Below, piece by piece: positions 12,569 to 47,217 of a stretch of 64,000 nt of DNA. A model generated the notes under the pieces. The model was not told the DNA's origin and ran no database searches. It saw nothing but the letters and a program-made list of their open reading frames with translations. The stretch is from NCBI RefSeq assembly GCF_044704955.1, contig NC_092006.1, positions 5,270,001 through 5,334,000 of the forward strand. The letters run 5' to 3'. This stretch comes from Pristiophorus japonicus. Its lineage: Eukaryota. A program made the position numbers and the translations under genes. Every line of letters starts with the position of its first letter. The first letter of the stretch is position 1.

Positions 12569-13106
12569 TGAGAACCCCGGAGGGGTTTCTAGCCGGTGGA
12601 CGAGGGAGGAGACGGAACTCGCAAAGAAGAATGCCCAGCCCGGCGGAGATAAGACTGAAGCCACAGAGACTCCAATCAAACATCCGGGGGCTGGGCTTTG
12701 CACTTCACATCGCTGGCCTAGTGCCCATATATCACCCAAAATGCCCTGCTATCGCCCATTTCACTTCGCTGACCTATCGGCGAGTGGAAAATCGCGATAC
12801 AAAAAATGGGCGATGTTCCAGCGATCAGTAAGGCTGACACATCGACCATCGCTGGAACATCGTTCATTTTTTGGGCGATAGTCTAGCCTACCTCCCTGTG
12901 TTCGGAAGGGTTTGCAAACACTCTTTCTGTTGAATGTAAAAGACCCGTGCTTTGAGTATTGTAAAGATGTCCCACTGTATTAGTGAGACCACCATTTAGA
13001 CCAGGGTCTTCTCAGTTTCCTGATTCTCTGAATCTTTTTCTGCTGACCCTGTAATTCCAGTCAGTAACAAGATTGGGGTTTTTTTTGTCGCAAATGCTTG
13101 AATATA

Positions 13107-18848: not shown

Positions 18849-21800
18849 TCATATCCATGAGCTGTTCACTTTCCTTTCCTGTCGGACTGTTGGATCCGCC
18901 TTAAATGCCAGTTGGGCGTAAAGAGTCTATGAGAGAAAACAGAAACCATTATCGCGGCTCACATCATCACCATCGGAACGGAGTGACAGGAGGAGGCCAT
19001 TCAGCCCCTCGAGCATGTTCCCCCACTCAATAAGATAAGAACATAAGAAATAGGAGCAGGAGTCGGCCATTCGGCCCCTCGAGCCTGCTCCGCCACTTAA
19101 TGAGATCATGGCCGATCTGATCATGGACTCAGCTCCACTCCCCTGCCTGCTCCCCATAACCTCTTATCGCCATCGTTCAAGAAACTGTCTATCTCTGTCT
19201 TAAATTTATTCAATGTCCCGGCTTCCACAGCTCTCTGAGGCAGCAAATTCCACAGATTCACAATCCTCTGAGAGAAGAAATTTCTCCTCATCTCAGTTTT
19301 AAATGGGCGGCCCCTTATTCTAAGATCGTGCCCCCTAGTTCTAGTCTCCCCCATCAGTGGAAACATCCTCTCTGCATCCACAGCTGATCCTGTATCTTAA
19401 CTCACTCTACCCACCTTGGTTCCCTAACCCTTAATCCCCTTACCCAACAAGAGTCGATCCACCTCTGTCTTGACATTTCCAACTGACCCCTGACCTCGAC
19501 AGCTTTTTGGGGGAGAGAGTTCCAGATTCCCGCTCCCCTTTGTGTGAAGAAGTGTTTCCTGTCATCACCCCTGAACGGTCTGGCTCGAAATTTAAGGTGA
19601 CGTCCCCTTGGTCTGGACTCACCCCGCCAAAGGAACTCATTTCTCTCTCTATCCACCTATCGAACACTTTAATCATCATAAACAACTCGATTAGATCGCC
19701 CTTTAATCTTCTATACTCCAGGGAATAAAAGCTTAGTCTGTGCGACCTGTCTTAATAATTTAACGCTTTTAGCCCCTGTATTATTAGTTAGGCCACAGCT
19801 GAAGTACTGCGTGCAGCTCTGGTCACCACATTACAGGAAAGATGTGATTGCACTGGAGAGGGTGCAGAGGAGATTTACCAGGATGTTGCACTGGAGAGGG
19901 TGCAGAGGAGATTTACCAGGATGTTGCACTAGAGAGGGTGCACAGGAGATTTACCAGGATGTTGCACTAGAGAGGGTACAGAGGAGATTTACCAGGGTGT
20001 TGCACTGGAGAGGGTGCAGAGGAGATTTACCAGGATGTTGCACTGGAGAGGGTGCAGAGGAGATTTACCTGGATGTTGCACTGGAGAGGGTACAGAGGAG
20101 ATTTACTAGGATGTTGCACTGGAGAAGGTGCAGAGGAGATTTACCAGGATGTTGCACTGGAGAGGGTGCAGAGGAGATTTACCAGGATGTTGCACTGGAG
20201 AGGGTGCAGAGGAGATTTACCAGGATGTTGCACTAGAGAGGGTGCAGAGGAGATTTACCAGGATGTTGCACTGGAGAGGGTACAGAGGAGATTTACCAGG
20301 ATGTTGCACTAGAGAGAGTACAGAGGAGATTTACCTGGATGTTGCACTGGAGAGGGTACAGAGGAGATTTACTAGGATGTTGCACTGGAGAGGGTGCAGA
20401 GGAGATTTACCAGGATGTTGCACTAGAGAGGGTGCAGAGGAGATTTACCAGGATGTTGCACTGGAGAGGGTGCAGAGGAGATTTACCAGGATGTTGCACT
20501 AGAGAGGGTGCAGAGGAGATTTACCAGGATGTTGCACTAGAGAGGGTGCAGAGGAGATTTACCAGGATGTTGCACTAGAGAGAGTACCGAGGAGATTTAC
20601 CAGGATGTTGCACTGGAGAGGGTACAGAGGAGATTTACTAGGATGTTACACTAGAGAGGGTGCAGAGGAGATTTACCAGGACATTGCACTAGAGAGGGTA
20701 CAGAGGAGATTTACCAGAATGTTGCACTAGAGAGGGTACAGAGGAGATTTACCAGGATGTTGCATGGACTGGAGAATTTTAGCGACGAGGAAAGATTGGA
20801 TAGGCTGGGGGTTGTTTTCTCTGCAACAGAGGAGGCTGAGGGGAGACCTGATTGAGGTGTATAAAATGATGAGGAGCCTGGATAGAGTGGATAGGAAGGA
20901 TCTGTTTCCCTTGGCAGAGGGGGTCAACAACCAGTGGGCATAGATTGAAAGTAATTGGGCGGAGGTTTAGAGGGGATTTGAGGGGAAATGTCTTCACCCA
21001 GAGGGTGGTGGGGGTCTGGGGCGGAACTCACTGCCTGAAAGGGAGGTAGAGGCAGAAACCCTCACCACATTTAAAAAGTACCTGGATGTACACTTGAAGT
21101 GCCGTAACCTACAGGGCTACGGATTGAGAGCGGGAAAGTGGGATTAGGCCGGGTGGCTCTCGGTCGGCCGGCGCGGGACACGATGGGCCGAATGGCCTCC
21201 TCCCGCGCAGTAAACTTCTGTGATTCTATGATTATTCTGTCAACTTGTAATTATATATAATCGCCAACTTAAAATATAGACCGATATTTTGTAATCTGTT
21301 TTTGCAGTTCTATCAAAATAAACTGCTTTCCTGCAGAGTTCATTGTGCAAAGTTTTATAGAATCGTTAACTATGAATCTTAACCGTTGGATTAAGGATGA
21401 GTGCAGGTAACTGCAAGGTGTCAAGCAAAGACAATTATTTTCACTCTCACCTCCTTATCTCTTGCACCTGGTCTGGAATCCGTGAATTTCTCATCGCTGG
21501 CCGTGTTACCTGAAATAAAGGGAATGCAATCTAAGTCTAAATGCACACACATTTCACGCTGACATGCACCGAGCCAAACGTTGTTTCCTTCAGGTAATTA
21601 TCCAACTCCCTTTTGAAAGCCACGTTTGAGTCTGCCTCTACCACCCTCTCAGGCAGTATGTTCCAGACCCTAACCACTCGCTGCTTAAAAATAGTTTTTC
21701 CTCATTTCGCCTTTGCTTCTTCTGCCTTAAATCTGTGTCCTCTGCTTCTCCACCCTTCTCCCAACGAGAACAGTTCCTCTCTGTCTGGACCCCTCACGAT

Positions 21801-23358
21801 TTGGCCATCCTGACTTGGGCATAGGTCATTGGGTCACAATCCCGGCACTCCATCCCTAACAGCACTGTTAGGAGCACCTTCACCACAGCGGACTGTCGAA
21901 CTCGTTTGGCAGAACGTCTCATCGCAAGAGCTTTCACACAAGCACCAACATGTAGCTTGGTTGGCGGTGAGGAGGGCCTTACCCGTCAGAGCCTTCATGC
22001 ACAGCCGACGTCTCAGCAGCACGGCACGGTGCCCCCGGGCCGGCTGCGGGGCGGACGAGACTGTCACCCATCTCCTTCAGGATTGCCCCTTCGCGAGGCA
22101 GGTTTGGAAAGAGATGCAGTGGTTGCTGTCGAGGTTCATCCCGAGCAGCTCCGTAACACAGGACCCTGTGCTCTACGGGCTGTTCCCAGGGACACACACC
22201 CAGACTGACATCACCTGCTGCTGGAGGGCCATCAACTCGGTCAAAGACGCTCTTCGGTCTTGCCGAGACTTGCTGGTCTTCCAGAGCAAGGAGATGTCCA
22301 CGTCTGCGTGTTGCAGACTGGCGCAATCCACGATCCAGGATTACGTGCTGAGGGACGCACTTAAAATTGGTGCAGTCGCCACAAAGGCACGGTGGGGAAG
22401 GGCCGCAGTTTAAAGCCCTTCTGACACGGTAAACCCAGGAGGCAGGAATCAGTACAAAACTCCCCTCGGGCCGTACTTGTAACTTCTTTTTTGTGTACAT
22501 GGAGCACCATGATCTGTAAACACCTATGTAGTGCCATGTACAATGTAAGGTCTGTTTCGTAATGCACGTTGAAGAGAAAAATGTAAATGTACCGTCACCC
22601 ATTCCGTGTACTGTATAGTGACACATGTAATGTAATTTGTCGAATGTACTACAAGGTATCCCATATTGTACCGAATTGTACTTGAACTGAAAAGCAAAGA
22701 AATGTATCGAAAGGAACTGCCGTCAGCACCCAAATGTAGTGTATGGGATTGCTGACCGCAGCTAAATGTACTGAACTGCTTTTGAATGTACTGTACAAAT
22801 TTTTAGACGAATAAAGTATATTTTGAAATTAAAAAAAATAACACAGTAACTGGATAGATTGGCCGCGCCTCCCGACCGCCGCTACCTGACTGCCGGGTCC
22901 TGCAGCTCCAGCTCGCCATCACCGTCACCATCAGGAGGAGGAGAAGCACCACCGGGCAAGTCACCAAAACCCATAAACTACAGTCGCTGTGCAGCGGGAG
23001 CCCTGTACACAAGGGGGAAAAACAGCCTCTTAGTTAAAAAAAAATCCCGTAACCCAAGCCCTCTGCTTCTCGCAGGAGGTTCAGGGAGACCCAATACCAT
23101 CTTCCAGGGTCCACGAGGGTTAGATACTCAATACCAAGTCNNNNNNNNNNNNNNNNNNNNNNNNNNNNNNNNNNNNNNNNNNNNNNNNNNNNNNNNNNNN
23201 NNNNNNNNNNNNNNNNNNNNNNNNNNNNNNNNNNNNNNNNNNNNNNNNNNNNNNNNNNNNNNNNNNNNNNNNNNNNNNNNNNNNNNNNNNNNNNNNNNNN
23301 NNNNNNNNNNNNNNNNNNNNNNNNNNNNNNNNNNNNNNNNNNNNNNNNNNNNNNGTGT

Positions 23359-23427
<69 letters not shown>

Positions 23428-26400
23428 GGAGGTGCAACGAGACCTGGGTGTCATGGTACATCAGTCATTGAAAGTTGGCATGCAGGTACAGCAGGTGGTG
23501 AAGAAGGCAAATGGCATGTTGGCCTTCATAGCGAGGGGATTTGAGTATAGGAGCAGGGAGGTCTTACTGCAGCTGTACAGGGCCTTGGTGAGGCCTCACC
23601 TGGAATATTGTGTTCAGTTTTGGTCTCCTCAGCTGAGGAAGGACATTCTTGCTATTGAGGGAATGCAGCAAAGGTACACCAGACTGATTCCCGGGATGGC
23701 AGGACTGACATATCAAAAAAGGCTGGATCGACTCGGCTTATATTCACTGGAATTTAGAAGAATGAGAGGGAATCTCATAGAAACATATAAAATTCTGACG
23801 GGATTGGACAGGTTAGATGCAGGAAGAATGTTCCTGATGTTGGGGAAGTCCAGAACCAGGGGTCACAGTCTCAGGATAAGGGGTAAGCCATTTAGGACCG
23901 AGATGAGGAGAAACTTCTTCACTCAGAGAATTGTGAACCTGTGGAATTCTCTACCACAGAAAGTTGTTGAGGCCAGTTCGTTGGATATATTCAAGAGGGA
24001 GTTAGATGTGGACCTTACGGCTAAAGGGATCAAGGGGTATGGAGAGAAAGCAGGAATGGGGTACTGAAGTTGAATGATCAGCCATGATCATATTGAATGG
24101 TGGTGCAGGCTCGAAGGGCCGAATGGCCTGCTCCTGCACCTACTTTCTATGTTTCTATATTTGGACGGACGGATAGATGGTAAACAGACAGATAGTTTAC
24201 AGATAATACAACACTTGGTAAAGCAGTGGATCAGGATGAGGATAATTATAGGCTGCAGGAGAGCACAGACGGGTTGGTGAAATGGCCGTCAGCACGGCCG
24301 GTGGGGTTCAAAGCGGGGAAGTGTTAAGTGTTTCAGTTTGGGAGGGGTAACATGGACAGACAATGTACTGTGAATGGCATCGAGCGAGCACGTGATCCAC
24401 CGGAAATGGCAGTATATTATTCTCCAATTTGACCCATGGATCGCCCAGGAATATACCTGCTCTCCCAGCAGGTAGATATGACCTAGCAGGACAGAAGGAC
24501 CTTATAATTGAGAAAGCTAAACATTGAGAGATCTGGGAGAGGTAAATCATTGAGATACTTACACACGAATTTGCAGAAAGGAAGATAATTTGAATGTATA
24601 ACGTGACAGGGCTAACAATGATCTCTTACATCACCATTGAAGATATTAGTGAAGGAGAATAGTTACCGCTCAGCGATGAGATGCTTTCACTGATGAAATT
24701 GCCGGTGGAATTGACTGGAACGGCGCAAGTGCAGACAGCGCCACTCCGCCATGTTTCCGCCGAGACGCTGAGGTGACTCCCGACCGTGAGCGTCCCGTCC
24801 GGCTCGGTGGTCCCGGAGTCGCTCCGTCCCTCGGCGAGCCGTCCCGAAACATTCCAGCGGACGGGAAGGGAATCGGGAGTCAGGCTTCTGACCAGACACA
24901 GCAGCGGGACCCTCGCCAGCGAGGGAATTTCGTCCTGCGGCGGAGTTAAGAGCTGTATTTCCGGAGACCCTGCCGAATTTGGGGAGGATTAATATTCGAC
25001 AGAAATCGCTCGTTATTTACAATGAAATTCGTAAACAAATTCTTACCTGTAATGAGCAATTTCGAGCCGTTTCCGAATATAAGGTGCAATAGACTAGATT
25101 TCTTAGCTGCGCAGAAATACACCCCTGAATCGTTCCCCTGGACCTCGTTCACAATCAGAGAGTAAATATTGAATTTGTCTTCAATTTGTCCGGAAAATCT
25201 CCCTTCAGGAATATTGTAGTTCCTCACAGTGTAAACTTTCTGGAGAGGTCCTCGGTTCTGCTGCTTATACCACTGCACAGCTCGAGTCAGCAACTGACCA
25301 GCGTGACAATCCGCCTTGAAGGTACTGCCAACCGAGAGAGTCTGGACCGACGGACTCTGGGCGAAATAGTCCTGGGAGGCAATAACTGAGAGAAGAACAT
25401 GGTCACCACGGGGTCTGTTACAACAGGAATAAACACCGCTTCAGATCAAGAAACCCACACAGCAGTGAACGGTGAGAGAGGCGCTCGTGTTAAAGGAGCC
25501 TCATTTCTAATTGAGTTCAATGCTGAGGGTTAACATTGAGCCAATAACAGGAGGACAGAAGGAAGGAAGAGAAAAAAAGAAAGAGAAAGAGAAAGAAATA
25601 GAGAGAGAGAAGGAAAGAAAGAGAGAGAGCGAGAGAAAGAGATAGAGAGAGAAAAGAAANNNNNNNNNNNNNNNNNNNNNNNNNNNNNNNNNNNNNNNNN
25701 NNNNNNNNNNNNNNNNNNNNNNNNNNNNNNNNNNNNNNNNNNNNNNNNNNNNNNNNNNNNNNNNNNNNNNNNNNNNNNNNNNNNNNNNNNNNNNNNNNNN
25801 NNNNNNNNNNNNNNNNNNNNNNNNNNNNNNNNNNNNNNNNNNNNNNNNNNNNNNNNNNNNNNNNNNNNNNNNNNNNNNNNNNNNNNNNNNNNNGAGAAAC
25901 AGATAGAGAAAAAGAAAGAAAGAGAGAGAGAAAGAAAGATAAAGAGATAGAGAGAGGGAAAGAAAGAGTTGGATTTATATAACGCCTTTCGCAACCACTG
26001 GACTCAAAGTGCTTTACAGCCAATGAAGTACTTTTTGAAGTGTAGTCACTGTTGTAATGTGGGAAACACGGCGCACAGCAAGCTCCCACAAATAGCAATG
26101 TGTTAATGACCCAGATCATCTGTTTTCGAGATGCTGATTGAGGGATAAATATTGGCCCCAGGACACCGGGGAGAACTCCCCTGCTCTTCTTCGAAATAGT
26201 GGCCGTGGGATCTTTTACGTCCGCCCGAGAGAGCAGACGGGGCCTCGGTTTAACGTCTCAGGCAATAGATGCAGAATATTGACATTGGGTCTATTTCCCA
26301 CCAGCCTGAGATATTGCAAGATGCTAATATCAGCGAACGCAGCGCGCAATCTCCGACTCGGCTGACGAGCTCGCTGATCTTACGCCGCAGTTCCGCCATG

Positions 26401-26466
26401 GATTACCAGCAAATTCGACTGACCTGGAAAGAGAAGGGCGAGCACGCAGGGAGCTAAGCGATGCAT
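18849..26466 (-). CDS. Gene B: VJ-C1-TM receptor, 6 coding exons, ~312 aa, uncharged TM, TLYAQL motif
   Basis: Exons (minus): 26466-26424 (MHRLAPCVLALLFP), 25385-25047 (VJ), 24969-24667 (C1), 23002-22886 (GLPLHSDCSLWVLVTCPVVLLLLLMVTVMASWSCRTRQS), 21509-21451 (GNTASDEKFTDSRPGARDKE), 18926-18849 (TLYAQLAFKADPTVRQERKVNSSWI*). 939 nt in frame; exon sizes 43/339/117/59 equal those of gene D. Confidence 0.88.
19790..21232 (+). mobile_element. CR1 fragment with internal 38-bp tandem amplification (19847-20762, ~24 copies)
   Basis: Unit gttgcactggagagggtgcagaggagatttaccaggat encodes the CR1 segment ALERVQRRFTRML. Confidence 0.9.
21888..22840 (+). mobile_element. Tx1/L1-clade 3' fragment in intron 4 of gene B
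   Basis: CPRAGCGADETVTHLLQDCPFARQVW (CCHC-type), 3'UTR, aataaa and A tail. Confidence 0.8.
23141..23354. other. Assembly gap; a second gap lies at 25660-25893
   Basis: N runs next to microsatellites. Confidence 0.99.
23427..24160 (+). mobile_element. CR1 LINE 3' fragment
   Basis: 211-aa ORF matching the CR1 ORF2 C-terminus, plus 3'UTR. Confidence 0.93.
24667..24969 (-). CDS. Gene B C1-like exon
   Basis: SPEIQLLTPP...VPLLCLVRSL.PDSLPVRWNVSG...PDGTLTVGSHLSVSAETWRSGAVCTCAV; follows a 77-bp intron. Confidence 0.92.
25047..25385 (-). CDS. Gene B germline-joined VJ exon
   Basis: FAQSPSVQTLSVGSTFKADC...VQWYKQQ...PEGRFSG...YSLIVNEVQGNDSGVYFCAAKKSSLLHLIFGNGSKLLIT: canonical Cys/Trp/Cys, DSGxYxC and FGxG J motif in a single exon. 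Confidence 0.95.
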
Positions 26467-28350: not shown

Positions 28351-29179
28351 ATTCGTACTTATGCCAACATAAATAGCCCACATTCTGCCCGGCGTATGCC
28401 CATGAAATTCTGACGCTGGCCAAAGCAGGAGCAAGTGGGTAGCACTCTCGTCTCAGAGTCAGAAGGTTGTGGGTTCAAGTCCCACTTCAGAGATTGAGCA
28501 TACAACCCAGGGATGGAATACTTCTCGACCTGGAGTCCAGCTTGGTGCTGTCTATAATCCACATTTTTTCATTTCCTGGATTATCCAGCTAACCAATTAC
28601 TCACATGAACGTTCCTTTCTACGTAAGTAAGAATAACATGCAGCACAGCTCAATGCAAAATCCAACGTGCATGTTTTGGTAAACTGATAAAACCTTATAT
28701 CTGAATAACATTTTAAAAATGGCAAGTTATGACAGTAAACAGCAATAAGAGTGTATACCCGGCTATAATCCACAAACCCCCGCATTCAAAGTACATAATG
28801 AAGTGAAAACAATATGTATTTTCTCACTCTGACATTGCAATGACTCAGTAACGATTTCCCAGTCAATTGGTCTTGCAACAGTGCCTGAGCTATCCTGTGG
28901 GTCCTTGGTTTCACTGACACACCGCACACATTTGTTCTTTCAATCTGTGCTGTAAATCGGCCGCAGAGATATTCTGAGCGCATCTGGACCGAGCGATCAA
29001 AGAGCAGGATTCACATCCACAACGCTGGGGTTTCAAAACCAGTTTAATTTATCTGTAAACATTACATATGAATTATATCACGTGCTGTATAAAGATGTAC
29101 TCAGCACGGAAACCACAAATACAAGAATTTGGCATTACAATACTTGAAATTAGTTGAGTATATTCAAGACGGAGAGCGA

Positions 29180-31930
29180 TATAGGAGCAGGAGTTGGCCA
29201 TTCAGCCCCTCGAGCCTGCTCCGCCATTTAATACCATCATGGCCGCTCTGATCATGGACTCAGCTCCCCTTCCCCGCCTGTTCCCCATAACCCTTTACTC
29301 TCTTATCGCTCAAAAATCTGTCTATCTCCACCTTAAATATATTCAATGACCCAGCCTCCACAGCTCTCTGAGTCAGCGAATTCCACAGATTTACAACCCT
29401 CTGAGAGAAGAAATTCCTCCTCATCTCAGTTTTAAGTGGGCGGCCCCTTATGCCCCCCCAGTTTTAGTTTCGCCTATGAGTGGAAACATCCTCTCTGCAT
29501 CCACCTTGTCGAGCCCCCTCATTATCTTATATGTTTCCATTAGATCACCTCTCATTCTTCTGAACTCCAATGAGTAGAGGCCCAACCTACTCAACCTATC
29601 CTCATAAGTCAACCCCCTCCGGAATCAGCCGAGTGAACCTTCTCTGAACACCCTCCAATGCAAGTATATCCTTCCTTAAATACGGAGACCAAAACTGCAC
29701 GCAGTACTCCAGGTGTGGCCTCACCAATACCCTGTACATTTGTAGCAGGACTTCTCTGCTTTTATACTCCATCCCCCTTGCAATAAGGCCAACATTCCAT
29801 TCCAGTTGAGATCGAAGATCGGCCATGATCTTATTGAATGGCGGAGCAGGCTCGAGGAGCCGAATGGCCTCCTCCTGCTCCTAATTCGTATATTCTAAAA
29901 TAGAGATTAAACTGAACAGTAACCGACATATCATCGTAAGAACAGTGGCCCAACACAACGCTATGTAAGAGTCCATTTCAATGGTAGAGTTTTCGATTGG
30001 ACCCAATTGGGAAATCGCGCCCAAACTATGTTTGAAATTGCACCGACTGTCCGGCAAAACAGAGGAAGCTTTGCACTCCATATCGTCTTTCCTTTCCCAT
30101 CGGAGTGTTGGCTCCGTGTTAAATGCCAGCTGGGCATAAAGAGTCTGTGAGAGAAAACAGAAACAATTACCACGGCCCACATCTTCAGCGTCGGAACAGT
30201 GGGACAGGAGAGGGCCATTCAGCCCTTCGAGCCTGTTCCCCCATTCAGTTTGATCATGGCTAATGTGTATCTGAACTCCATCCGCCCGCCTTAAATACCC
30301 TCGCCCAACACCAATCTTTCATCGCAGTTTTGAACATTTCAATTGACCCTCAGCCTCAACAACTTTATGAGAGAGAGAGTTCCAGGTTCCCGCGGCCCTT
30401 TGTCTGAAGATGTGTTTCCTGACATCACCCCTGAACGGCCGGGCTCGAATTTTAAGGTCAAGCCCCCTTGTTCTGGACTCCCCAGACTCTCTCAAATTCT
30501 CTAATCATCTTAAATATCTCGATTACATCACCCTGTAATCTACACTCGAGGGAAAACAAGGCCAGTCTAAGAACATAAGAACATAAGATTTAGGAGCAGG
30601 AGTCAGCCATTCGGGCCCCTCGAGCTTGCTCCGCCATTCAATGAGATCACGGCTGACCATCGACCTCAACTCCACTTTCCTGCCCCATCTCCATATCCCT
30701 TGTTCCCCTCGATTCCGAAAATCTCTCGATCTCAGCCTTGAATATACTCAACGACTGAGTCTCCACAGCCCTCTGGGGCAGAGAATTCCAAAGATTCACC
30801 ACCCTCTGAGTGAAGAAATTCCTCCTCATCTCAGTCCTAAATGGCCAAGCCCTTATCCTGAGACTGTGTGACCCCTGGTTCTAGACTCCCCAGCCCTGAT
30901 ATGATTCAATGAGATCACATCTCATTCTTCTAAACTCCAGAGAGTATAGGCCCAGTCTACTCAACAGGTATATGCAACCTGTCCCATAATATAACCCTTT
31001 TAGCATGTTGGGACATTTTATTGGTTGTTGATAGCTCAGGTATAATTGTAGTGAATCGGCAATCCTGTGGGTATTTATAATTACTGACTGAAAATATCCA
31101 AATATAGATATTTGAATTTACTTTCAAATAAAAGGTGAATTTGTTTATTCGTTCCTGGGATGTGGGCGTGGCTGGCAAGGCCGGCATTTATTGCCCATCC
31201 CTAATTGCCCCTTGAGAAGGTGGTGGTGAGCCGCCTTCTTGAACCACAGAGGGTGGTTAAGCACCATTCAAATCGCTGTGGGTTTGGAGTCACGTATCAG
31301 CCAGACTGGGTAAGGGGCAGTAGATTTCTGTGATTTCCTTCCCTGAAACATAGAAACATAGAAACATAGAAAATAGGTGCAGGAGTAGGCCATTCGGCCC
31401 TTCGAGCCTGCACCACCATTCAATATGATCATGGCTGATCATGCAACTTCTGTACCCCTTTCCTGCTTTTTCTCCATACCCCTTGATCCCTTTAGCCATA
31501 AGGGCCACATCTAACTCCCTTTTGAATATATCCAACGAACTGGCCTCAACATCTTTCTGTGGTAGAGAATTCCACAGGTTCACAATTCTCTGAGTGAAGA
31601 AGTTTCTCCTCATCTCGGTCCTAAATGGCTTACCCGTTATCCTTAGACTGTGACCCCTTGTTCTGGACTTCCCCAACATTGGGAACATTCTTCCTGCATC
31701 TAGCCTGTCCAATCCCGTCAGAATTTTATATGTTTCGATGAGATTCCCCTCTCATTCTTCTAAATTCCACTGAATATAAGCCTAGTCGATCCAGTCTTTC
31801 TTCATATGTCAGTCCTGCCATCCCGGGAATCAGTCTGGTGAACCTTCGCTGCACTCCCTCAATAGCAAGAATGTCCTTCCTCAGATTAGGAGACCAAAAC
31901 TGCACACAATACTCCAGGTGTGGCCTCACT
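29180..31930 (-). mobile_element. CR1 fragments flanking the last exon of gene C (29180-29800, 30570-30960, 31347-31930)
   Basis: CR1 peptides and tails. Confidence 0.85.
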
Positions 31931-34900
31931 GAGGCCCTGTAGGAGGGCGATGGCTACGAAGCCAGGTCGCTGGTTGCAGTGCAGGCAGGCACAGCAGGAG
32001 GGGCGACGGAGCAGCAAGAGTCCGTAGAGGGAAGTGATCGAGGCCCAAGAGAGGCGTGAATCTGGGGCCCAGAAGAGACGAGGGCCCAGGGGCAGCACGG
32101 GCCCAGCCCACACTGTGCGATATGTGCGCGCACTAGGCCCGTGCAGCAGAGCTGGTCTCCAGTCGTCCTGGTTCACCCTTGCCCCTGGACCAAGACCTCG
32201 CTCTGTCAAGCCCCGTGTGGTGGCTGGTGTGCAACGGTCACCCCACGTTAAAAAAAAACACCCACAGGGGCCTTCCACCCTTCAGGATGTAGTTCGGGAT
32301 CTAGAATTTTAGGTTCTTTATTGAAACACTGTGAACTCATCCCTTTTTTGGCGTGGAATCAAGCCATACTCACTTCGAGGGACTGCCTATAATGATGATA
32401 CAACTGCAGTAAGACCTCCCTGTTCCTATACTCAAATCCCCTATACTGTCCTATACTCAAAGACATTAGTGACACCAGATGGGGTTTTACAATCTGGTAA
32501 TTTTATGGTCACCGTTACTTTTTAATTCCACATTTATTTGATTAATTGAATTTAAACTTCTCACCTACCATGGTGGGATTGGAATTCGGGTCCCCGGGAT
32601 TAATAGTCCAGGCGCCTGGATTACTAGCCCGCTGACATAACCACTATGCTACCGTTCTGTCGTGTTGAGCGAAGACAGCTCTTTTCCTATCTACCGCCTG
32701 GAACAGCGAACCACCCTGCAAGCGGATAAATTGGGAGTGCGGAGGAGTTTGAAGCACCTTGCGACCATCCCTACCTGACTGCCGCTCCGGACAGCCGCCA
32801 CAGACACCATCAGGAGCAGGAGAAGCGCCGCCAACAAATTCAGGACCAACCGCAATCCGTAGGCGCTCTGTGACGGAGACACTGTAAGAAAAGAGCTTTT
32901 TTAAAGAAAAAGGACGTTTCTGCAAAGAGTTAAACAAGTGCAGCCACCGAGCAAATCTGCTTGTGGAATTTCACACAAAACATTTTGCATAGTTCCCCAG
33001 CGAGCAGATATCTGAGAGGCCCCTGCTTACCGATAACTTTGCAATTAACAAGGACTGCGATGTTGCGATAGACAGGCAGACACGGGCAGACACCTGAGAG
33101 ATAGACAGATAAGAACACAAGAAATAGGAGCAGGAGTCGGCCATTTGGCTCCACAGCTGGTCTGGTCTCGGGCTCAGCTCTACTTCCCTGTCTGATAGAT
33201 AGACAGACAGACATAGAGATAGAGATAGAGAGAGAGTTAGAGAGTTAGAGAGAGAGAGGGAGATAGAGAGAGAGAGAGAGAGAGAGGGAGATAGATAGAT
33301 AGAGAGTTAGAGAGAGAGAGAGATAGATAGAGAGTTAGAGATAGAGAGTTAGAGTTAGAGATAGAGAGTTAGAGATAGAGATAGAGAGTTAGAGATAGAG
33401 ATAGAGAGTTAGAGATAGAGAGTTAGAGATAGAGAGTTAGAGATAGAGAGTTAGAGAGATAGATAGATAGAGTTAGAGATAGAGAGTTAGAGATAGAGAG
33501 TTAGAGAGATAGATCGATTGGATAGGCTGGGTTGTTTTCTTTGGAACAGAGGAGACTGAGGGGCGACCTTATTGAGGTGTATAAAATTATGAGGGGCCTG
33601 GATAGAGTGGATAGGACAGACCTGTTTCCCTTGGCAGAGGGGTCAACAACCAGGGGTCACAGATTGAAAGTAATTGGGAGGAGGTTTAGAGGGGATTTGA
33701 GGGGAAATGTCTTCACCCAGAGGGTGGCGGAGGTCTGGGGTGGAACTCACTGCCTGAAAGGGTGGTAGAGGCAGAAACCCTCACCACATTTAAAAAGCAC
33801 CTGGATGTGCGCTTGAAGTTCCGTAACCTACAGGGCTACGGACTGAGAGGTGGAAAGTGGGATTAGGCTGGGTGGCTCTTTGTCGGCCGGCGCAGACATG
33901 ATGAGCCGAATGACCTCCTTCCATGCTGTAAATTTCTATGATTCTAGGATAGACATCGCGATAGAACACAGCACAGTGGAAATGTAATCACATTTTCGAC
34001 TTTTAAGCAGGGAGGTACCTTACTCCGAACATTTATTCCCTAGCTAGACAGATAGACTTCAAAATTCAGCAAGGTAGACACTGAAACATTGAGAGATATG
34101 TGATAGGGAGATCGTGGTATAATTATACACGCAGACGCAGAAAAGGACGTAAGAATATAAGAACATAAGAAATAGGAGCAGGAGTCGGCCATTCGGCCCC
34201 TCGAGCCTACTCCGCCATTCAATACGATCCTGGCTGATCCGATCATGGACTCAGCTCCACTTCCCCGCCCACTCCCCATAACCCTTCACTTCCTTATCGC
34301 TCAAAAATCTGTCTATCTCCACCTTATATATATTCAATGTCCCAGCCTCCACAGCTCTCTGGAGCCGAGAATTCCACAGATTTACAACCCTCTGAGAGAA
34401 GAAATTCCTCCTCATCTCAGTTTTAAATGGGCGGCCCCTTATTCTGAGACTATGCCCCCTAGTTCTAGTCTCCCCCATCAGTGGAAACATCCTCTCTGCA
34501 TCCACCTTGTCGAGCCCCCTCATTATCTTATACGTTTCGATAAGATCACCTCTCATTCTTCTGAACTCCAATGAGTAGAGACCCAACCTGCTCAACCTTA
34601 CCTAAGAAGTCAACCCCCTCATCTCCGAAATCAACCAAGTGAACCTTCTCTGAACTGCCTCCAGTGCAAGTATATCCTTCCTTAAATACGGAGACCAAAA
34701 CTGCACGCAGTACTCCAGGTGTGGCCTCACCAATACCCTCTCCAGTTGTAGCAGGACTTCTCTGCTTTTATACTCTATCCCCCTTGCAATAAAGGCCAAG
34801 ATTCCATTCCAGTTGAGGTCTAAGATTGGCCGTGATCTTATTGAATGGCAGAGCAGGCTCGAGGGGCCGAATGGCCTCCTCCTGCTCCTAATTCGTATAT

Positions 34901-37900
34901 TCTAAAATAGAGGTTAGACTGAACAGTAACCGACATATCGTAGAGGGTTGTTGAGGCCAGTCTGTTAGATATATTAAAGAGGAAGCTAGATATGGCCCTT
35001 ACAGCTAAAGGGATCAAGGGGTATGGAGAGAAAGCAGGAATGGGGTACTGAGGTGAATGATCAGCCATGATCATATTGAATGGTGGTGCAGGCTCGAAGG
35101 GCCGAATGGCCTACTCCTGCACATATTTTCTATGTTTCTATGTAAGGACAGTGGCTAAATACAGCGCTATGTATTCTGAATTCCCTGTCATTCTTCTGAA
35201 CTCCATGCCTTCAATATACAAAAAGTTGCGAAGAAGTGAGACTCACATCACCATTGAAGATATTAGTGAAGGGGACACCGGCCACAGTTACCTCCCGGAG
35301 ATGCGACGCTTTCACTCAGGAGATCCCCGGTGGCGTTGATCGGAACGGTGCAAGTGCAGACGCTCAGGACGCTTCTGGCGGTATAGCTCCCGTCCGGCTC
35401 CAGCCTGCCGGGCTCGCTCCGTCCCTCGGCGGCCCGTCCCGCAACCAGCCAGCGGATGGGGAAGGAGTCCGGAGCAGCGCCCCGCACCAGACACATCAAG
35501 GGCACTCTCTCCAGCCGGGGAATCTCAGCCGGCGGTGGCGTTAAGAGGAAGAGGACCGGGGGGCCCGCTAGATGGAAGAGAAATTGGAATTAACCAGGCG
35601 CACAAGGTAGGTTTGAATTGGTGTCTCGACGCACAATTGGATGGACGAGTGGGATTACCTGTGATCACCAGCGTGGTGCCAGTCCCGAATATCAGGGACC
35701 GATTCCTGGCGTTTGGAGCAGCGCAGTAATACCGCCCAGAATCGCTCCTCTGGACGTTGTCAATGACCAGCGAATAATTCCCCGATTGCTCGCATACCTC
35801 GCCGGAAAATCTTCCCCCGGGCCTCACGAACCGTCCGGTTTTGTAAACGAGCCGCATGCCCTCTCGGTGCCAGTGTGTGTACCAGTAAACGATGCCCGGG
35901 GCCAGCCTCCCGGTCTGGCATTGAAGTTTGACCAGGCTCCCGACATCGGCCGTTAGCAGCGCCGGAAATTGGCTCAAGACCGCCTGAGACACGACAGCTG
36001 AGACAAGGTTGCGGGGGGGGGGGGACACAAAAATTAAAAAAAACACAATATTAACAACAGGTTATAGGCCCCCGAGTCACCCTGGATACCGACACATCTC
36101 AAATTCCCCTCCACTGGCGCGTCGGGAGCGCGTGTGGGACATTCCGCCGCGCTGCGCACCGTTAAATTGCGCCTCTCCGCCCGCAATTCCCACAGGCGCA
36201 CAGTCCGAGTCCGTTCGCTGTGAAATCCGCTCCAATCATTGGCGGGCACCATGGCGACTGGCTGCAGTTAAGATTGCAAAATCCTTCTCCCAAACCGATT
36301 ATGCTTCCCCCTGGTCTAACCCGGCTCTCCAATCCATCTCTCCAGGGGTTGGGGACCGGGGGGCGCTTGATTGTGTTAAAATGGGGCGATAGCTTTCTCA
36401 CTAATTCCACTAGACAGGCCCCCCTCTCCCAACGGTAGACCCTCGCCTTCAAATACCGGAGTTCACTAACATCTTTATCTCAGTTAGGGGGCAGTTCAGT
36501 GTCACATTCGCTTCCACTCACCCATCACAATGTTCGGCTCCAAAGTCGCGCTATCGGTATTGAGCGAAGCCCGCACACCTTTATACTTTGCCCAATATCT
36601 AATCTGCTTCTTAAAAAAATTATAGTTAAACGCAAACTTGTGTATCAGCGAACGATGCAACACAGGAGGCCATTCGGCCCATCAAACCTGTGTTGTGACA
36701 GAGCGACTCAATCATTCCCACTCCGCCCCTGCTCTTTCCCCACAGCCCGGCATATTGCCTCCTTTCCAAATATTTATCCAATTCCCCCGTTTGAAAGTCA
36801 CTTTTTCATCTGCTCCCAGTGCCCCTTTCAGGCAGCGCGTTCCCGAGCACAAGCTCTCAGGGCTTGAAATCACGTCCTGATCTCCCCCTCTGGTTCTGTT
36901 ACCGATTATCTTAAACATGTGTCCTCTGCTTACCCACCCTCCTCCCACTAGAAACAATCTCTCCTTCTTTACTCGATCGGAAACCTTCTCCTTATTAATT
37001 CTATACAAAACCCTTCTCCTTATTAATTCTCTCCAAAACCCTTCTCCTTATTAATTCTCTCCAAAACCCGTCTAAAATCCAAAATCCAAAAGAGCAGGAG
37101 TAAACGGGTACTTTTCAGAATGGCAGGCAGTGACTAGTGGAGTGCCGCAAGGTTCTGTGCTGGGGCCCCAACTGTTTACATTGTACATTAATGATTTAGA
37201 CGAGGGGATTAAATGCAGTATCTCCAAATTTGCGGATGATACTAAGTTGGGTGGCAGTGTGAGCTGCGAGGAGGATGCTATTAGGCTGCAGAGTGACTTG
37301 GATAGGTTAGGTGAGTGGGCAAATGCATGGCAGATGAAGTATAATGTGGATAAATGTGAGGTTATCCACTTTGGTGGTAAAAACAGAGAGACAGACTATT
37401 ATCTGAATGGTGACAGATTAGGAAAAGGGAAGGTGCAATGAGACCTGGGTGTCATGGTACATCAGTCATTGAAGGTTGGCATGCAGGTACAGCAGGCGGT
37501 TAAGAAAGCAAATGGCATGTTGGCCTTCATAGCGAGGGGATTTGAATACAGGGGCAGGGAGGTGTTGCTACAGTTGTACAGGGCCTTGGTGAGGCCACAC
37601 CTGGAGTATTGTGTACAGTTTTGGTCTCCTAACTTGAGGAAGGACATTCTTGCTATTGAGGGAGTGCAGCGAAGGTTCACCAGACTGATTCCCGGGATGG
37701 CGGGACTGACCTATCAAGAAAGATTGGATCAACTGGGCTTGTATTCACTGGAGTTCAGAAGAATGAGAGGGGACCTCATAGAAACGTTTAAAATTCTGAC
37801 GGGTTTAGACAGGTTAGATGCAGAAAGAATGTTCCCAATGTTGGGGGAGTCCAGAACCAGGGGTCACAGTCTGAGGATAAGGGGTAAGCCATTTAGGACC

Positions 37901-40234
37901 GAGATGAGGAGAAATTTCTTCACCCAGAGAGTGGTGAACCTGTGGAATTCTCTACCACAGAAAGTAGTTGAGGCCAATTCACTAAATATATTCAAAAGGG
38001 AGTTAGATGAAGTCCTTACTACTCGGGGGATCAAGGGTTATGGCGAGAAAGCAGGAAGGGGGTACTGAAGTTTCATGTTCAGCCATGAACTCATTGAATG
38101 GCGGTGCAGGCTAGAAGGGCTGAATGGCCTGCTCCTGCACCTATTTTCTATGTTTCTATGTTTCTATGTCTCCTTATTAATTCTCTCCAAAACCCTTCTC
38201 CTTATTAATTCGCTCCAAAACCCTTCTCCTTATTAATTCGCTCCAAAACCCTTCTCCTTATTAATTCTCTACAAAATCCTTCCCCTTATTAATTCGCTCC
38301 AAAACCCTTCTCCTTATTAATTCTAACCAAAACCCTTCTCCTTATTAACTCTCTCCAAAACCCTTCTCCTTATTAATTCGCTCCAAAACCCTTCTCCTTA
38401 TTAATTCGCTCCAAAACCCTTCTCCTTATTAATTCTCTACAAAATCCTTCCCCTTATTAATTCGCTCCAAAACCCTTCTCCTTATTAATTCTAACCAAAA
38501 CCCTTCTCCTTATTAATTCGCTCCAAAACCCTTCTCCTTATTAATTCTAACCAAAACCCTTCTCGTTATTAATTATCTCCAAAATCGTTCTCCTTATTAA
38601 TTCGCTCCAAAACCCTTCTCCTTATTAATTCTAACCAAAACCCTTCTCCTTATTAATTCTCTCCAAAACCCTTCTCCTTATTAATTCTATCCAAAACCCT
38701 TCTCATTATTAATTCACTCCAAAACCCTTCTCCTTATTAATTCTCTCCAAAATCCTTCTCATTATTAATTCTCTCCAAAACCCTTCTCATTATTAATTCT
38801 CTCCAAAACCCTTCTCCTTATTAATTCTATCCAAAATCCTCCTCCTTATTAATTCTCTCCAAAACCCTCCTCCTTATTAATTCTCTCCAAAACCCTTCTC
38901 CTTATTAATTCTATCCAAAACCCTTCTCCTTATTAATTCTATCCAAAACCCTCCTCCTTATTAATTCTCTCCAAAACCCTTCTCCTTATTAATTCTCTCC
39001 AAGACCCTTCTCCTTATTAATTCTCTCCAAGACCCTTCTCCTTATTAATTCTCTCCAAAACCCTTCTCCTTATTAATTCTCTCCAAAACCCTTCTCCTTA
39101 TTAATTCTATCCAAAACCCTTCTCCTTATTAATTCTCTCCAAAACCCTTCTCCTTATTAATTCTCTCCAAAACCCTTCTCATTATTAATTCTCTCCAAAA
39201 CCCTTCTCCTTATTAATTCTCTCCAAAACCCTTCTCCTTATTAATTCGATCCAAAACCCTCCTCCTTATTAATTCTCTCCAAAACCCTTCTCCTTATTAA
39301 TTCTCTCCAAGACCCTTCTCCTTATTAATTCTCTCCAAGACCCTTCTCCTTATTAATTCTCTCCAAAACCCTTCTCCTCATTAATTCTCTCCAAAACCCT
39401 TCTCCTTATTAATTCCATCCAAAACCCTTGTCCTTATTAATTCTCTCCAAAATCCTCCTCCTTATTAATTCTCTCCAAAACCCTTCTCATTATTAATTCT
39501 CTCCAAAACCCTTCTCCTTATTAATTCTCTCCAAAACCCTTATCCTTATTAATTCTATCCAAAATCCTCCTCCTTATTAATTCTCTCCAAAGCCCTCCTC
39601 CTTATTAATTCTCTCCAAAACCCTTCTCCTTATTAATTCTCTCCAAAACCCTTCTCCTTATTAATTCTATCCAAAACCCTTCTCCTTATTAATTCTATTC
39701 AAAACCCTCCTCCTTATTAATTCTCTCCAAAACCCTTCTCCTTATTAATTCTCTCCAAGACCCTTCTCCTTATTAATTCTCTCCAAGACCCTTCTCCTTA
39801 TTAATTCTCTCCAAAACCCTTCTCCTTATTAATTCTATCCAAAACCCTTCTCCTTATTAATTCTCTCCAAAACCCTTCTCCTTATTAATTCTATCCAAAA
39901 ACCTTCCCATTATTAATTCTCTCCAAAACCCTTCTCCTTATTAATTCTCTCCAAAACCCTTCTCCTTATTAATTCTATCCAAAACCCTTCTCCTTATTAA
40001 TTCTCTCCAAAACCCTTCTCCTTATTAATTCTCTCCAAAACCCTTTTCCTTATTAATTCTCTCAAAAACCCTTCTCCTTATTAATTCTCTCCAAAACCCT
40101 TTTCCTTATTAATTCGCTCCAAAACCCTTCCCTTGGTTGACTCTCTCCTAACCCCTTCCTCACTCTGGCAAAACATCGAAGGCTATCTCACCTTGGAAGA
40201 GATGGAACAGCACACAGAGACCACAGAAGCTCAT
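29881..40234 (-). CDS. Gene C: VJ-C1(10-aa deletion)-TM(Arg) receptor, 6 coding exons, ~357 aa, TLYAQL motif; could be a young pseudogene
   Basis: Exons (minus): 40234-40192 (MSFCGLCVLFHLFQ), 35997-35659 (VJ), 35567-35292 (C1), 32881-32775 (VSPSQSAYGLRLVLNLLAALLLLLMVSVAAVRSGSQ), 32697-32653 (AVDRKRAVFAQHDRT), 30144-29881 (TLYAQLAFNTEPTLRWERK...). 1074 nt in frame. Confidence 0.78.
33195..33512. repeat. Complex (AG)/(AGAT)/(AGAGTT) microsatellite
   Basis: Direct reading. Confidence 0.9.
35292..35567 (-). CDS. Gene C C1-like exon with in-frame 30-bp deletion
   Basis: 276 bp versus 306 bp in gene D; lacks SAETWRSGAV. Confidence 0.9.
35659..35997 (-). CDS. Gene C germline-joined VJ exon
   Basis: QAVLSQFP...VKLQC...VYWY...GRFSG...YSLVIDNVQRSDSGRYYCAAPNARNRSLIFGTGTTLVIT. 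Confidence 0.95.
36980..40130. repeat. 28-bp minisatellite (~70 copies) in gene C intron 1, interrupted by a CR1
   Basis: Unit ccttctccttattaattctctccaaaac. Confidence 0.95.
37090..38168 (+). mobile_element. CR1 insertion within the 28-bp minisatellite, absent from the gene D arm
   Basis: SGVPQGSVLGP, FADD and C-terminal peptides; (ttctatgt)n tail. Confidence 0.93.
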
Positions 40235-40930
40235 TATCCCTGCCCCAGGAGGGTTGAACTCTGATGCTGGGACTGGCAGCTCAGGGAGGAATGCTTGTCA
40301 GCAGGTCGGTGTGAGGCTGGTGTGAAATGCCGAGCCAATTGTGGTAAGCACGCACTGTGTTTATTAATAAATGTACGATTTGGGCTGCAAAATAGTGCCG
40401 AAGCAGAAAGCTCTGTGTGGGTTTCCTGTTTTTACAGGTAAAGAGATGAAACACACACACACCATCTGTGTTACAGAAGGCACCTCGTCTCTACGCATGT
40501 TAGTTTGACCACACTTGGAGCACTGCGCACGGTTCTGGTCTCCATCTTTCAAAAGAATATAGAGGCACTGGAGCGGGTGTAAACAAGATTCAGAAAGATG
40601 ACCCCAGAACTGAGAGAGGTTATACTGATCAGGAAAGGCTCAACAGACTGGGGCACTTTCTCCAGAAAATTACATAGTATGTGCATCACAGAAACAGACC
40701 ATTCAGCCCCACCGCTCCGTGCCGGGGTTTATGCTCCACACCAGCCCCTCCCACCTCTCTCCATCTCACCCCATCCCCATATCCTTCTATTCCTTTCTCC
40801 CTCATGTGTTTATCCAGCCTCCCCTTAAATACATCGATACTATTCGCCTCAACCCCTCCCTGTGGCAGCAAGTTCCACATCTCAGCACTCTCTGGGTCAA
40901 GAAGTTTCTCCTGAATGCCCCATTGGGTTT

Positions 40931-42400: not shown

Positions 42401-44715
42401 ATTTATGAGTGACTGTCTTATATCGATGGCCCCCTCGTTCTGGTCTTCTCCCTCAAGTTGGAAGCATCTCTATTGTGAGGCAGAAGTGGATATGATCCAT
42501 TCAGACTTCCCTATAATGGTGGTGAGCACATATTTGAGGTATGGAGAACCCAGATGCAATGAAAATGGGTTAAGAATGTAAAAAAACACAAGATAAGGCC
42601 CGAGGACTGTGCAAGAAACAGACCTGGGAAACATAGACATAGAAACACAGAAAATAGGTGCAGGAGCAGGCCATTCGACCCTTCGAGCCTGCACCACCAT
42701 TCAATATGATCATGGCTGATCATGCAACTTCAGTACCCCATTCCTGCTTTCTCTCCATACTCCCTTGATCCCTTTAGCCGTAAGGGCCACATCTAACTCC
42801 TTTTTGAATATATCCAACGAACTGGCCTCAACAACTTTCTGTGGTAGAGAATTCCACAGGTTCACAATTCTCTGAGTGAAGAAGTTTCTCCTCATCTCGG
42901 TCCTAAATGGCTTATCCCTTATCCTTAGACTGTGACCCCTGGTTCTGGACTTCCCCAACATCGGGAATATTCTTCCTGCATCTAGAATTGGCTTCGAAAA
43001 GGCGGATCCCAAACAATAGTGAGAGTTAATAACTAACTTTACTGCATGCATTTCTGTTCGAACTATAAACGAGGTCAGGTGTAATCGAATAAACAGGGCT
43101 CGACGATTTCTGGAGACTGGGGCAAACCGGGTTCAACTGGGTGCTGTCTGTAATACACGTGTCTTAATTTCCAGAATTATCCAGATAACCAATTATTCAC
43201 ACGAGTGAATCTAGGTAAATAAGATTAACTCGCAGCACAACTCATTGCAAAATCCGTCGTCCCCTTTGAGGATTGATGGAACTTTATGTCAGAATATATG
43301 GGTTTAAAAAGAACAAGTTATGCCAGAAAGCAGCAGTAAGGGTGTGTTACCAGCTATAATCCGCAAACTCTGTATAAAACGTTGAGGGGGCTTGGAACCA
43401 GAAAAGCCAGCGTGTTGCAGACAATGTGCTGTCCCAGTATGGAGATCTGTGCTCCAATTTATTCTGTCCCAGGCCTCAAAACAGCAAATGTGCGGTTTGG
43501 TCACTCCTGGGAATCGCCACTTCTATCATCGCGGCATCCCCACCGACACCTGGGAGTCCCTGTGGCCAAAGACCAGTGGAGGAAGTGCATCCGGGAGAGC
43601 GCTGAGCACCTCGAGTCTGGTCGCCGAGAGCGTGCAGAAACCAAGCGCAGGCAGCGGAAGGAGCGTGCGGCAAACCTGTCCCACCCTCCCCTTACCCTCA
43701 ACCACTGTCTGTCCCACCCGTGACAGGGGACTGTGGCTCTCGTATTGGACTGTTCGGCCACCGAAGGACTCATGCTAAGAGTGGAAGCGAGTCTTCCTCG
43801 ATTCCGAGGGTCTGCCGACGATGATGATTATATTGTAGGACAGCTCTGTCTTCTACGTCAATGTGTATGCGCGTCGTGCACAACGGTTGATTCACATCCG
43901 AATCATTAAAAGATTTGTTTGCCAGTGATATCAAGGGCTTTTATTTTGCACTGGAAGTTGAGAATAAATGGACCTGAAACGGGAAGTTCTACTGACAGCA
44001 CTGCGGTATAGCGCCGGCTAGCGATGAAATTGATGTTGTGCAACCCCCCCCCAAAGGCCAGTTATCGCACTCAGTACCCCAGGGTGAGAGGTTCCTTGGG
44101 TATTTGACGATCCGGACATTTCTTTGGCCAGTACCGCGCGGACCCACTAATTCAAGAGGACTGGCGGGTCAGTGCTCAGTTGAAATCTGATAACCCCCAC
44201 ACAACAGAGAAATGCAGTTCATTGCAGGGGTCCCGCAAATAACCCATCTTTTAGCACCAGGAGGAGGCCATTCAGCCCCTCGAGCCTGCGGTTCCATTCA
44301 GTTAGCTCATGGGCTGATCTGTATCTTAACCCCATCCACCTGCCTTGGTCCCGTAACCCTGAATACCCTTACCCAACAAATAGCTATCCATCTTAGTTTT
44401 GACATTTTACAATTGCCCCCTCGCGCCCCCCCCCAGCCTCGACAGCTTTCTGAGGGAGAGAGTTCCACATTGCCACTACCCTTTGTGTGAAGAAGGGCTT
44501 CCTGACATCAACCCTCAATGGCCTGGCTCTAATTTTAAGGTGACATCCCCTTGTTCTGGACTCCCCCCACCAAGAGGCCATAGTTTCTCTCAATCTACCC
44601 CCTCAACTCCTTCAATCATCTTAAATACTTCAAATAGATCATTCCTTGATCTTCTATATTCAAGAGAATTCAAGCCTCGTCCATGCAAACGGTCCTCACA
44701 ATTGAACTCTTTCCC

Positions 44716-45380: not shown

Positions 45381-47217
45381 TTCTAGCCCCTGCATAATGT
45401 ATCTGTTTAAGTCTCAAATGAGGTACTGTATACTGGGATTACTCCAACCCCGGTAGATTTCTCTATTTGAACTAACCGGAACTACGCGTGAGTTGGATAA
45501 AATTTACCAAAGATATTTGATAGCATTCCATTGCTACCACAAGTCACACACCACCTCGGGATTTCCGGATCTGCTTTACAGCCAACGGAGCAACATTTTC
45601 AAGTGTGGTCACTGGTGCAATGTCGGGACACGCGGCCAATTTCCGCACAGCAAGCTCCCACAAACTCACGCTTACCAAAAGAAAATCACTAAACTGGCTG
45701 TAAAGCGCGTTGGGACGTCCTGATGTCGTGAAAGGCACTATATAAATTCCCTAAATTAAGAAGTGTGGGTTATAGACAGGCCCCAGTCTCTAGAACTTGT
45801 CGGTCCCTGTTTACCGATTACACCTAGTTCGAACAGAAATGCACACAGTAAAGTTAGTTATTTATTCTCAATATTGTTTCCGATCCTCCTTTTTCTAAGA
45901 GGAGCCAATTCTAGTTCTCGGGTCTGTTTCTTGCACAGTCCTCGGGCCTTATCTTGTGTGTTTTTACATTCTTAACACGTCTACATTACATCTGACTTCT
46001 CCATACCTCAAATATGTGCTCACCCCCCACCCCGTTATAGAGAAGGCTGTATGGATCCTATCCACTACCGTCTCACAATAGAGATGTTTCCACTTGTGGG
46101 AGAGCCTAGATCTAGGGGGCCATCACTATACGACAGTCACCCATAAATCCAATGGGGAATTCAGGAGAAACTTCATCACCCAGAAAATGGGGAGAATGTG
46201 GAACTCGCTGCCAAAGGGAGGGGTTGAAACATAGAATCATAGAAAATAGGTGCAGGAACAGGCCATTCGGCCCTTTGAACCTGCACCACCATTCAATATG
46301 ATCATGGCTGATCATGCAACTTCAGTACCCCATTCCTGCTTTCTCTCCATACCCCCTTGATCCCTTCAGCCGTAAGGACCACATCTAACTCCCTTTTGAA
46401 TATATCCAACGAACTGGCCTCAACAACTCTCTGCAGGAGAGACTTCCACAGGTTCACAATTCTCTGAGTGAAGATGTTTCTCCTCATCTCGGTCCTAGAT
46501 GGCTTACCCCTTATCCTGAGAGTGTGACCCCTGGTTCTGGACTTCCCCAACATCGGGAACATTCTTCCTGCATCTACCCGGTCCAATCCCGGCAGAATCT
46601 GAGGCGAATAGTATCGATGCATTTAAGGGGAGGCTGGATCAACACATGAGGGAGAAAGGAATAGAAGGATATGGGGATGGGGTGAGATGGAGAGTGGTGG
46701 GAGGGGCTGGTGTGGAGCATAAACCCCGGCACGGAGCGGTGGGGCTGAATGATCTGTTTCTGTGATGTACATTCTCTCTAATTTTCGAGAGAAAAGTGCC
46801 CCAGTCTGTTGAGCCTTTCCTGATCAGTATAACCTCTCTCAATTCTGGTGTCATCTTTCTGAATCTTGTTTACACCCGCTCCAGTGCCTCTATATTCTTT
46901 TGAAAGATGGAGACCAGAACCGTGCGCAGTGCTCCAAGTGTGGTCAAACTAACATGCGTAGAGACGAGGTGCCTTCTGTAACACAGATGGTGTGTGTGTG
47001 TTTTATCTCTTTACCTGTAAAAACAGGAAACCCACACAGAGCTTTCTGCCTTGGCACTATTTTGCAGCCCAAATCGTACATTTATTAATAAACACAGTGC
47101 GTGCTTACCACAATTGGCTCGGCATTTCACACCAGCCTCGCACCGACCTGCTGACAAGCATTCCTCCCTGAGCTGCCAGTCCCAGCATCAGAGTTCAACC
47201 CTCCTGGGGCAGTGATA

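Follow-up and report, generated by a model that had tools for sequence, protein, structure and literature searches.

How does a receptor gene come to have the ectodomain of one neighbor and the 3' half of another? The question is posed by a 64-kb stretch of the 5.9-Gb genome of the sawshark Pristiophorus japonicus (C32:5270001-5334000, hereafter the window), which holds four related genes, A (+ strand), B (-), C (-) and D (+). B, C and D are each composed of a 43-nt leader exon, a 339-nt VJ exon in which V and J-like sequences are joined, a single C1 exon, a transmembrane (TM) exon and a last exon, in which one TxYxxL motif is encoded; the leader and VJ exons are present in all seven distinct copies of each gene. 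D is identical to a UniRef protein of P. japonicus (P0001) named "immunoglobulin kappa light chain-like", and Pfam recognizes in it a V-set domain and a C1-set domain (34.7 bits; cut-off 21). The C1-set of C scores 21.1 bits, at the cut-off. C and D are arranged head to head, with 7 kb from leader to leader. We found that gene C is a mosaic, D-like in its front part and B-like in its back part.

The mosaic is apparent from the informative sites that distinguish B from D when C is represented by the copy of cassette U2, whose C1 exon is undeleted. Through leader, V, intron 2 and C1, 281 sites put C with D and 10 put it with B; downstream of the C1 splice donor the corresponding numbers are 22 and 96. 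The sites are linked and the counts are therefore given without a p-value. They bear out the original prediction, drawn from the letters of the window alone, that C is a chimera whose topology switches near 35285. In pairwise alignments of B with C and of C with D, each judged against 100 shuffles, C and D are 95.6-98.8% identical in the unique blocks between 40851 and the C1 donor and 96-99% identical in introns 1 and 2, where B-C does not rise above the shuffles. Beyond the donor, the first 60 nt of intron 3 align between B and C (43/51, z 16) and give no alignment between C and D. In the TM exon (B-C 73/106, z 13.6), the 100 nt at the end of the last intron (84/100) and the 60 nt that open the last exon (50/60), the C-D score lies under the shuffle maximum. 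The 3' flank aligns between B and C as well (188/252), and all of its 24 matches lie beside one or the other. As had been noticed, C/D identity ends shortly past the donor, at 35285, seven bases inside intron 3; the first six of these (GTAACT) are also found in B, leaving a single D-specific base. The 28-nt intron block that C was said to share with B is there too (35245-35272 and 24628-24655), starting one base away from the position originally given.

The further claim that the 3' half of C matches B holds for the TM exon, the end of the last intron, the last exon and the flank, but not throughout. On either side of the TM exon, the adjoining 100 nt do not rise above shuffles (z 1.6 before it and -1.7 after it), and a blastn search at word size 4 found no counterpart in C of B's 59-nt cytoplasmic exon. 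The TM exon of C is also 10 nt shorter than that of B. As the two losses add up to 69 nt, splicing the TM exon directly to the last exon would preserve the reading frame; such a splice is predicted for C, the match of frame by itself having a one-in-three chance. The span first assigned to C (29881..35300) covers this 3' half, whereas the full gene extends from 29881 to 40234 on the minus strand.

How often has this junction formed? The A-B-C-D cassette is present 12 times on C32, at a spacing of ~110 kb, between about 4.69 and 6.0 Mb. Five copies recur at an offset of exactly 559,609 bp, and the one pair compared shows 0 differences in 19,552 bases, so that we count seven distinct cassettes. 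The repeat is probably a false assembly duplication, or else a very recent duplication. Sequence was read from the seven distinct cassettes and from 20 kb of an eighth. The junction of C is identical in 7/7 distinct cassettes, among which no other combination of modules occurs: the mosaic is one fixed event. The element upstream of C that is shared with B finds 16 matches, every one inside a cassette and all in the same orientation. Flip-flop inversion through the arms of C and D was considered and is ruled out, since the spacer elements have one orientation in 12/12 cassettes.

The front of C likely still exchanges ectodomain sequence with D through gene conversion. Across 1539 ungapped columns, from 1 kb of intron 1 to C1, seven C and seven D copies have only 2 fixed differences and share 15 polymorphisms (12 outside CpG), where 2.1 would be expected if the genes were independent. 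In 717 columns of promoter and leader the same copies have 12 fixed differences and 8 shared polymorphisms (0.5 expected), bringing the shared polymorphisms to 23 in total against an expectation of about 2.6. C/D pairs belonging to the same cassette are slightly closer than permuted pairs (p 0.037 and 0.027). The sharp edge of C at the donor arises because conversion tracts end where C/D homology ends. Since these tracts reach the donor, the original crossover cannot be assigned to that site and could sit anywhere in the ~75% identical C1 exon. The C1 exons of B and D match at 221/293 positions and are followed by a common donor hexamer, and a second patch of three-way homology lies near 43094-43150; the switch points of C thus fall within homology common to both parents. 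The "exon-bounded" mechanism that had been invoked for C needs nothing special, the donor being simply the place where C/D homology stops.

What events assembled the mosaic? On balance we favor C as the recipient, a duplicate of B whose front 7.8 kb would have been overwritten by its inverted neighbor D, with conversion continuing thereafter. The most economical order begins with a tandem duplication of the entire B unit, followed by replacement of the front of C by D sequence between the two three-way homology patches (the C1 exon with its donor, and about 43094-43150). Conversion would then have persisted across the inner arms, now 96-99% identical, sharpening the edge at the donor beyond which the introns are unrelated, and the four-gene cassette would have been amplified last. 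With 10 nt deleted and the 59-nt cytoplasmic exon gone, C would stay in frame and be short-tailed, with one motif resembling an immunoreceptor tyrosine-based inhibitory motif (ITIM); such a receptor is predicted to be inhibitory or redundant. Several features of the DNA fit this order of events. The B and C units abut, B's upstream element ending at 28777 and the match to C's 3' flank beginning at 28872. Their flanks are equally diverged on both sides (75-77% identity) and both are found only in these cassettes. The D-like tract of C spans 35285 to 43123 and ends at the patch common to B, C and D, overlapping there the gene-side end of the upstream element; its outer end, at 87-88%, is more alike than the flanks, which argues that the tract is younger than they are. 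Among 150 scored candidates per search, no further V or C1 of the family was found outside the cassettes, and D is therefore the only donor seen.

Trees of related proteins also lean toward C as the recombinant. Three protein searches yielded 61 proteins, of which 43 were aligned and 18 dropped, namely two entries for sawshark D and models that were partial, fused, tailless or isoforms. The trees comprise 41 shark and ray proteins to which B, D and, from cassette U2, the undeleted C were added (44 rows). In the V tree, a type-2 clade of 23 rows includes B (support 99/96) and leaves C and D among the rest; forcing C to join B is rejected (p 0.0002 in the approximately unbiased test). In the tail tree, D joins the type-1 tails of rays (98/92), at a point where long branches meet, and B and C are on the type-2 side (90/83). 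When the tail tree is rooted with six outgroups, type 1 takes in D (80/81) but not C, and type 2 takes in B (77/71).

A number of observations weigh against C as the recipient. The upstream element is not exclusive to the B type, since D retains 27 nt of it, and it may represent an ancient regulatory site common to the genes. The synonymous difference between B and C in the TM exon (9.5/25) resembles that between B and D in C1 (0.43), so that the B-related portion may include C1, which D may have received from C. The tail tests on C are all non-significant (p 0.06, 0.14, 0.28 and 0.32); none of them rejects a grouping of C with D (0.06), its grouping with galeomorph type 1 (0.14) or its exclusion from type 2 (0.28). 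Type-1 genes of horn shark, basking shark and smoothhound combine a leader and V of the C/D type with a tail nearer B and C (best identity 54-55%, versus 37% to D). The TM exon of C is 42% identical to type-1 and 29% to type-2 proteins in a set that omits the horn shark, the figures for B being 31% and 35%, and C holds the type-1 residue at 4/4 scorable tail sites. Internal stops in 2/7 copies of B (L023 and L029; cassettes U3 and U5) mean that damage is not peculiar to C. Given that galeomorph type-1 genes show C's combination, the swap may predate the sawshark lineage; alternatively, the recombinant may be B. The polarity would then be reversed: C would be an ordinary shark type-1 gene, B would long ago have taken C's C1-to-3' half, the front of D would have been copied from C, and D would be a paralogue with a diverged tail. 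B's gain would parallel horn shark P0014 and catshark P0051, automatic gene models in which a type-2 V is joined to a type-1 C1 and tail. We regard this account as rather unlikely, if a serious contender. Its module combination for C is the usual one in galeomorph sharks, and the TM and tail profile of C fits horn-shark type 1. A type-2 placement of the P0014 tail is rejected (p 0.03), and the C1 of B has the type-1 residue at 6/7 diagnostic sites despite its type-2 V; B may itself hold an older converted C1. However, this polarity requires a lost type-2 donor and an upstream element preserved to the same degree as the 3' flank ever since types 1 and 2 diverged. Type-2 marks persist in B at the start of C1 and in the TM exon, a B C1 of type 2 is not rejected (p 0.21), and the tail of D clusters with ray type-1 tails. 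Four runs of other organisms' DNA, searched at 80% likeness, covered neither exon nor junction and were uninformative on polarity.

The swaps in C, P0014 and P0051 indicate that V and tail were probably re-coupled more than once in shark evolution. It had been proposed that such swaps move ectodomains between signaling modules and amount to a RAG-independent route of germline diversification. That a dedicated system of recurrent, exon-bounded swapping of ectodomains and signaling tails operates here seems to us highly improbable. V and tail do conflict in 3/44 rows of the best trees (the three genes just named), a tail tree copying the V split is rejected (p 0.03), and exchange is ongoing within the array that holds the genes. 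Yet programmed diversification would be expected to leave many products or variable junctions, and what is seen is one junction in all seven distinct cassettes, with the same spacer orientation throughout the 12. The tails, moreover, are all of the same motif class, B, C and D carrying one TxYxxL each, and movement between signaling "modules" is not supported. Nor is positive selection on V among the copies shown, pN/pS (the ratio of nonsynonymous to synonymous polymorphism) being 0.43-1.02, and the effect of C/D exchange is mainly to homogenize ectodomains. The notion that C is an assembly chimera is largely refuted, and we give it hardly any weight. The exact repeat at 559,609 bp does signal local assembly trouble, but the junction is common to seven diverged copies and C has intron, TM and flank sequence of its own. 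In addition, a 125-nt contig of a short-read DNA run, which may derive from the assembled sample, bridges the junction of the U5 copy with 0 differences.

Does the mosaic gene differ from its parents in what it might do? The predicted tails of B, C and D belong to the same class, with a TxYxxL that we take, by consensus, to be ITIM-like or similar to an immunoreceptor tyrosine-based switch motif; accordingly, no change of signal between them is shown. The TM segment of C has Arg at its outer edge and Asn inside in 7/7 copies. Because 20 uncharged residues follow the Arg, coupling of C to an adaptor is only a weak lead. The ...ERK ending that C was reported to share with B is present in the sequence but is translated in only 3/7 copies of C, those that read through the family stop; the remaining four stop just ahead of it. 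C is damaged in three of its seven copies, by internal stops in two (L005 and L030; cassettes U1 and U5) and by a C1 deletion in that of the window. The latter lacks 10 C1 residues, including the second Trp, and has Tyr in place of a conserved Cys before the TM segment, neither change occurring in the other six distinct copies. Among copies, pN of TM plus tail is 0.023 for C and 0.002 for D, and D has no stops (0/7) and one amino-acid change in its 3' half. C thus looks to be under relaxed selection, to judge from the sequence of its copies. The presence of stops in copies of B and C and their absence from D reflect gene birth and death inside the array. The single spliced V-C1 contig found carries D alleles at 15/17 listed sites, against at best 11 for C. 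In three small runs from the same organism, neither the bin of C's TM exon nor that at the start of the window was covered by a contig, although contigs cannot show absence.

The features of the locus are collected in the table below. Gene A is conserved, closely similar proteins occurring in horn shark, catshark, zebra shark and a manta ray (P0082, P0101, P0103 and P0111). A 28-bp tandem array occupies part of intron 1 in both C (36984-40158) and D (47291-49223), with a fragment of a long interspersed nuclear element (LINE) on the C side, and the length of intron 1 varies among cassettes. Behind D, at 55085-58594, is a long LINE-like element that includes reverse-transcriptase-like sequence; its 3' fragments fill introns of A, B, C and D. 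Open frames that appear retrovirus-like by eye are found between two cassettes, at C32:5224305-5228713.

Table. Position and properties of the genes, exons and shared segments in the 64-kb window
Feature	Position	Strand	Remarks
Gene C (whole)	29881-40234	-	
Gene C leader exon, D-type	40192..40234	-	GT/AG ends, open frame; 41/42 identical to D
Gene C VJ exon, D-type, 339 nt, J-like FGxGT inside	35659..35997	-	331/339 to D
Gene C C1 exon, D-type	35292..35567	-	30-nt in-frame deletion only in window copy and its identical duplicate
C1 splice donor and end of C/D identity	35285..35291	-	same in 7/7 distinct cassettes
28-nt intron block identical to B 24628-24655	35245..35272	-	
Gene C TM exon, 107 nt, ends phase 0	32775..32881	-	TM exons of B and D: 117 nt, phase 1
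Gene C last coding exon, with TxYxxL	29881..30144	-	family stop read through in window copy
C 3' flank, homologous to B 17862-18125	28872..29140	-	188/252; matches only beside B and C
Upstream element common to C and B (28508-28777)	43094..43368	-	202/262
Inner inverted arm, C side; pairs with 46600-50945	35285..40851	.	95.6-98.8% in unique blocks; holds variable-length 28-bp tandem array
Outer, older part of C arm, repeat-interrupted; pairs with 45780-46148	42401..43123	.	87-88% without gaps; 12/12 cassettes
Inner inverted arm, D side	46600..50945	+	leader 47218-47260, VJ 50203-50541, C1 50633-50938
Gene D 3' half	52177..54688	+	TM 52177-52293, cytoplasmic exon 52396-52454, last exon from 54653; matches P0001
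Gene B 5' exons	gene 18849..26466	-	leader 26424-26466, VJ 25047-25385, C1 24667-24969
Gene B 3' exons	gene 18849..26466	-	TM 22886-23002, cytoplasmic exon 21451-21509, last exon from 18926
Gene A, distant VJ-C1-TM sister gene	5270..12600	+	Pfam V-set; 3' exon borders approximate

The mechanism behind C is already known from mammalian receptor clusters. Human FCGR2C is a hybrid receptor gene of the immunoglobulin superfamily, fixed, that arose by non-allelic recombination (PMC6563257). Like FCGR2C, C unites the ectodomain of one paralogue with the tail of another. The human gene is accounted for by one unequal crossover between parents on the same strand with opposite motifs (PMC6563257); in contrast, the parents of C differ in strand, its formation requires two switch points, the tails are of one motif class and C is only the likelier recipient. 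A second analogy is offered by SIGLEC11 and SIGLEC16, which stand head to head about 9 kb apart. Their upstream region and ectodomain exons are homogenized by repeated conversion, whose 3' boundary falls near an exon end and has no defining motif (PMC5701461). C and D are likewise a close head-to-head pair with high identity confined to upstream region and ectodomain, and with repeated conversion. SIGLEC11/16 are an inhibitory/activating pair with tested ligands (PMC5701461), whereas the predicted tails of C and D both keep an ITIM-like motif.

To what kind of gene does the family belong? Genes with joined VJ and C1 are discussed as relics of an antigen-receptor precursor. By description, we take PRARP to be the best candidate match for the sawshark genes. 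Protein searches revealed relatives of the family in lungfish, turtles, a caecilian and a lizard. Like UrIg, UrIg2, NKp30 and PRARP, the family has a split leader, V and J in one exon and a C1-set domain (PMC12227049, PMC10751288). UrIg is described there as secreted, with three C1 domains, and UrIg2 as having nine (PMC12227049); unlike these, the sawshark genes are multicopy and have one C1, a TM segment and a tail with TxYxxL. The family is of the non-rearranging VJ-C1 type and other than UrIg (PMC12227049, PMC10751288, PMC11599192). A literature search, with subscription journals mostly outside its coverage, returned no description of this locus or receptor array.

The value of these observations lies in the family itself, a multicopy VJ-C1-TM array across sharks and rays that has been annotated automatically as "Ig kappa light chain-like". 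It is tempting to speculate that this is an undescribed, expandable array of non-rearranging VJ-C1 receptors, whose two ancient V lineages were repeatedly re-coupled to the C1 and tail modules of one another (as in sawshark C, P0014 and P0051), and in which C serves as the activating or decoy partner of an inhibitory D. We consider that combination doubtful. If true, it would represent a paired receptor system of the natural killer type on an antigen-receptor-like scaffold, C sharing the binding site of D and having a shortened tail and a conserved Arg/Asn TM segment. Should VJ-C1 genes be shown to evolve as paired innate receptors, through conversion and module swaps, this would tell us their role without RAG.

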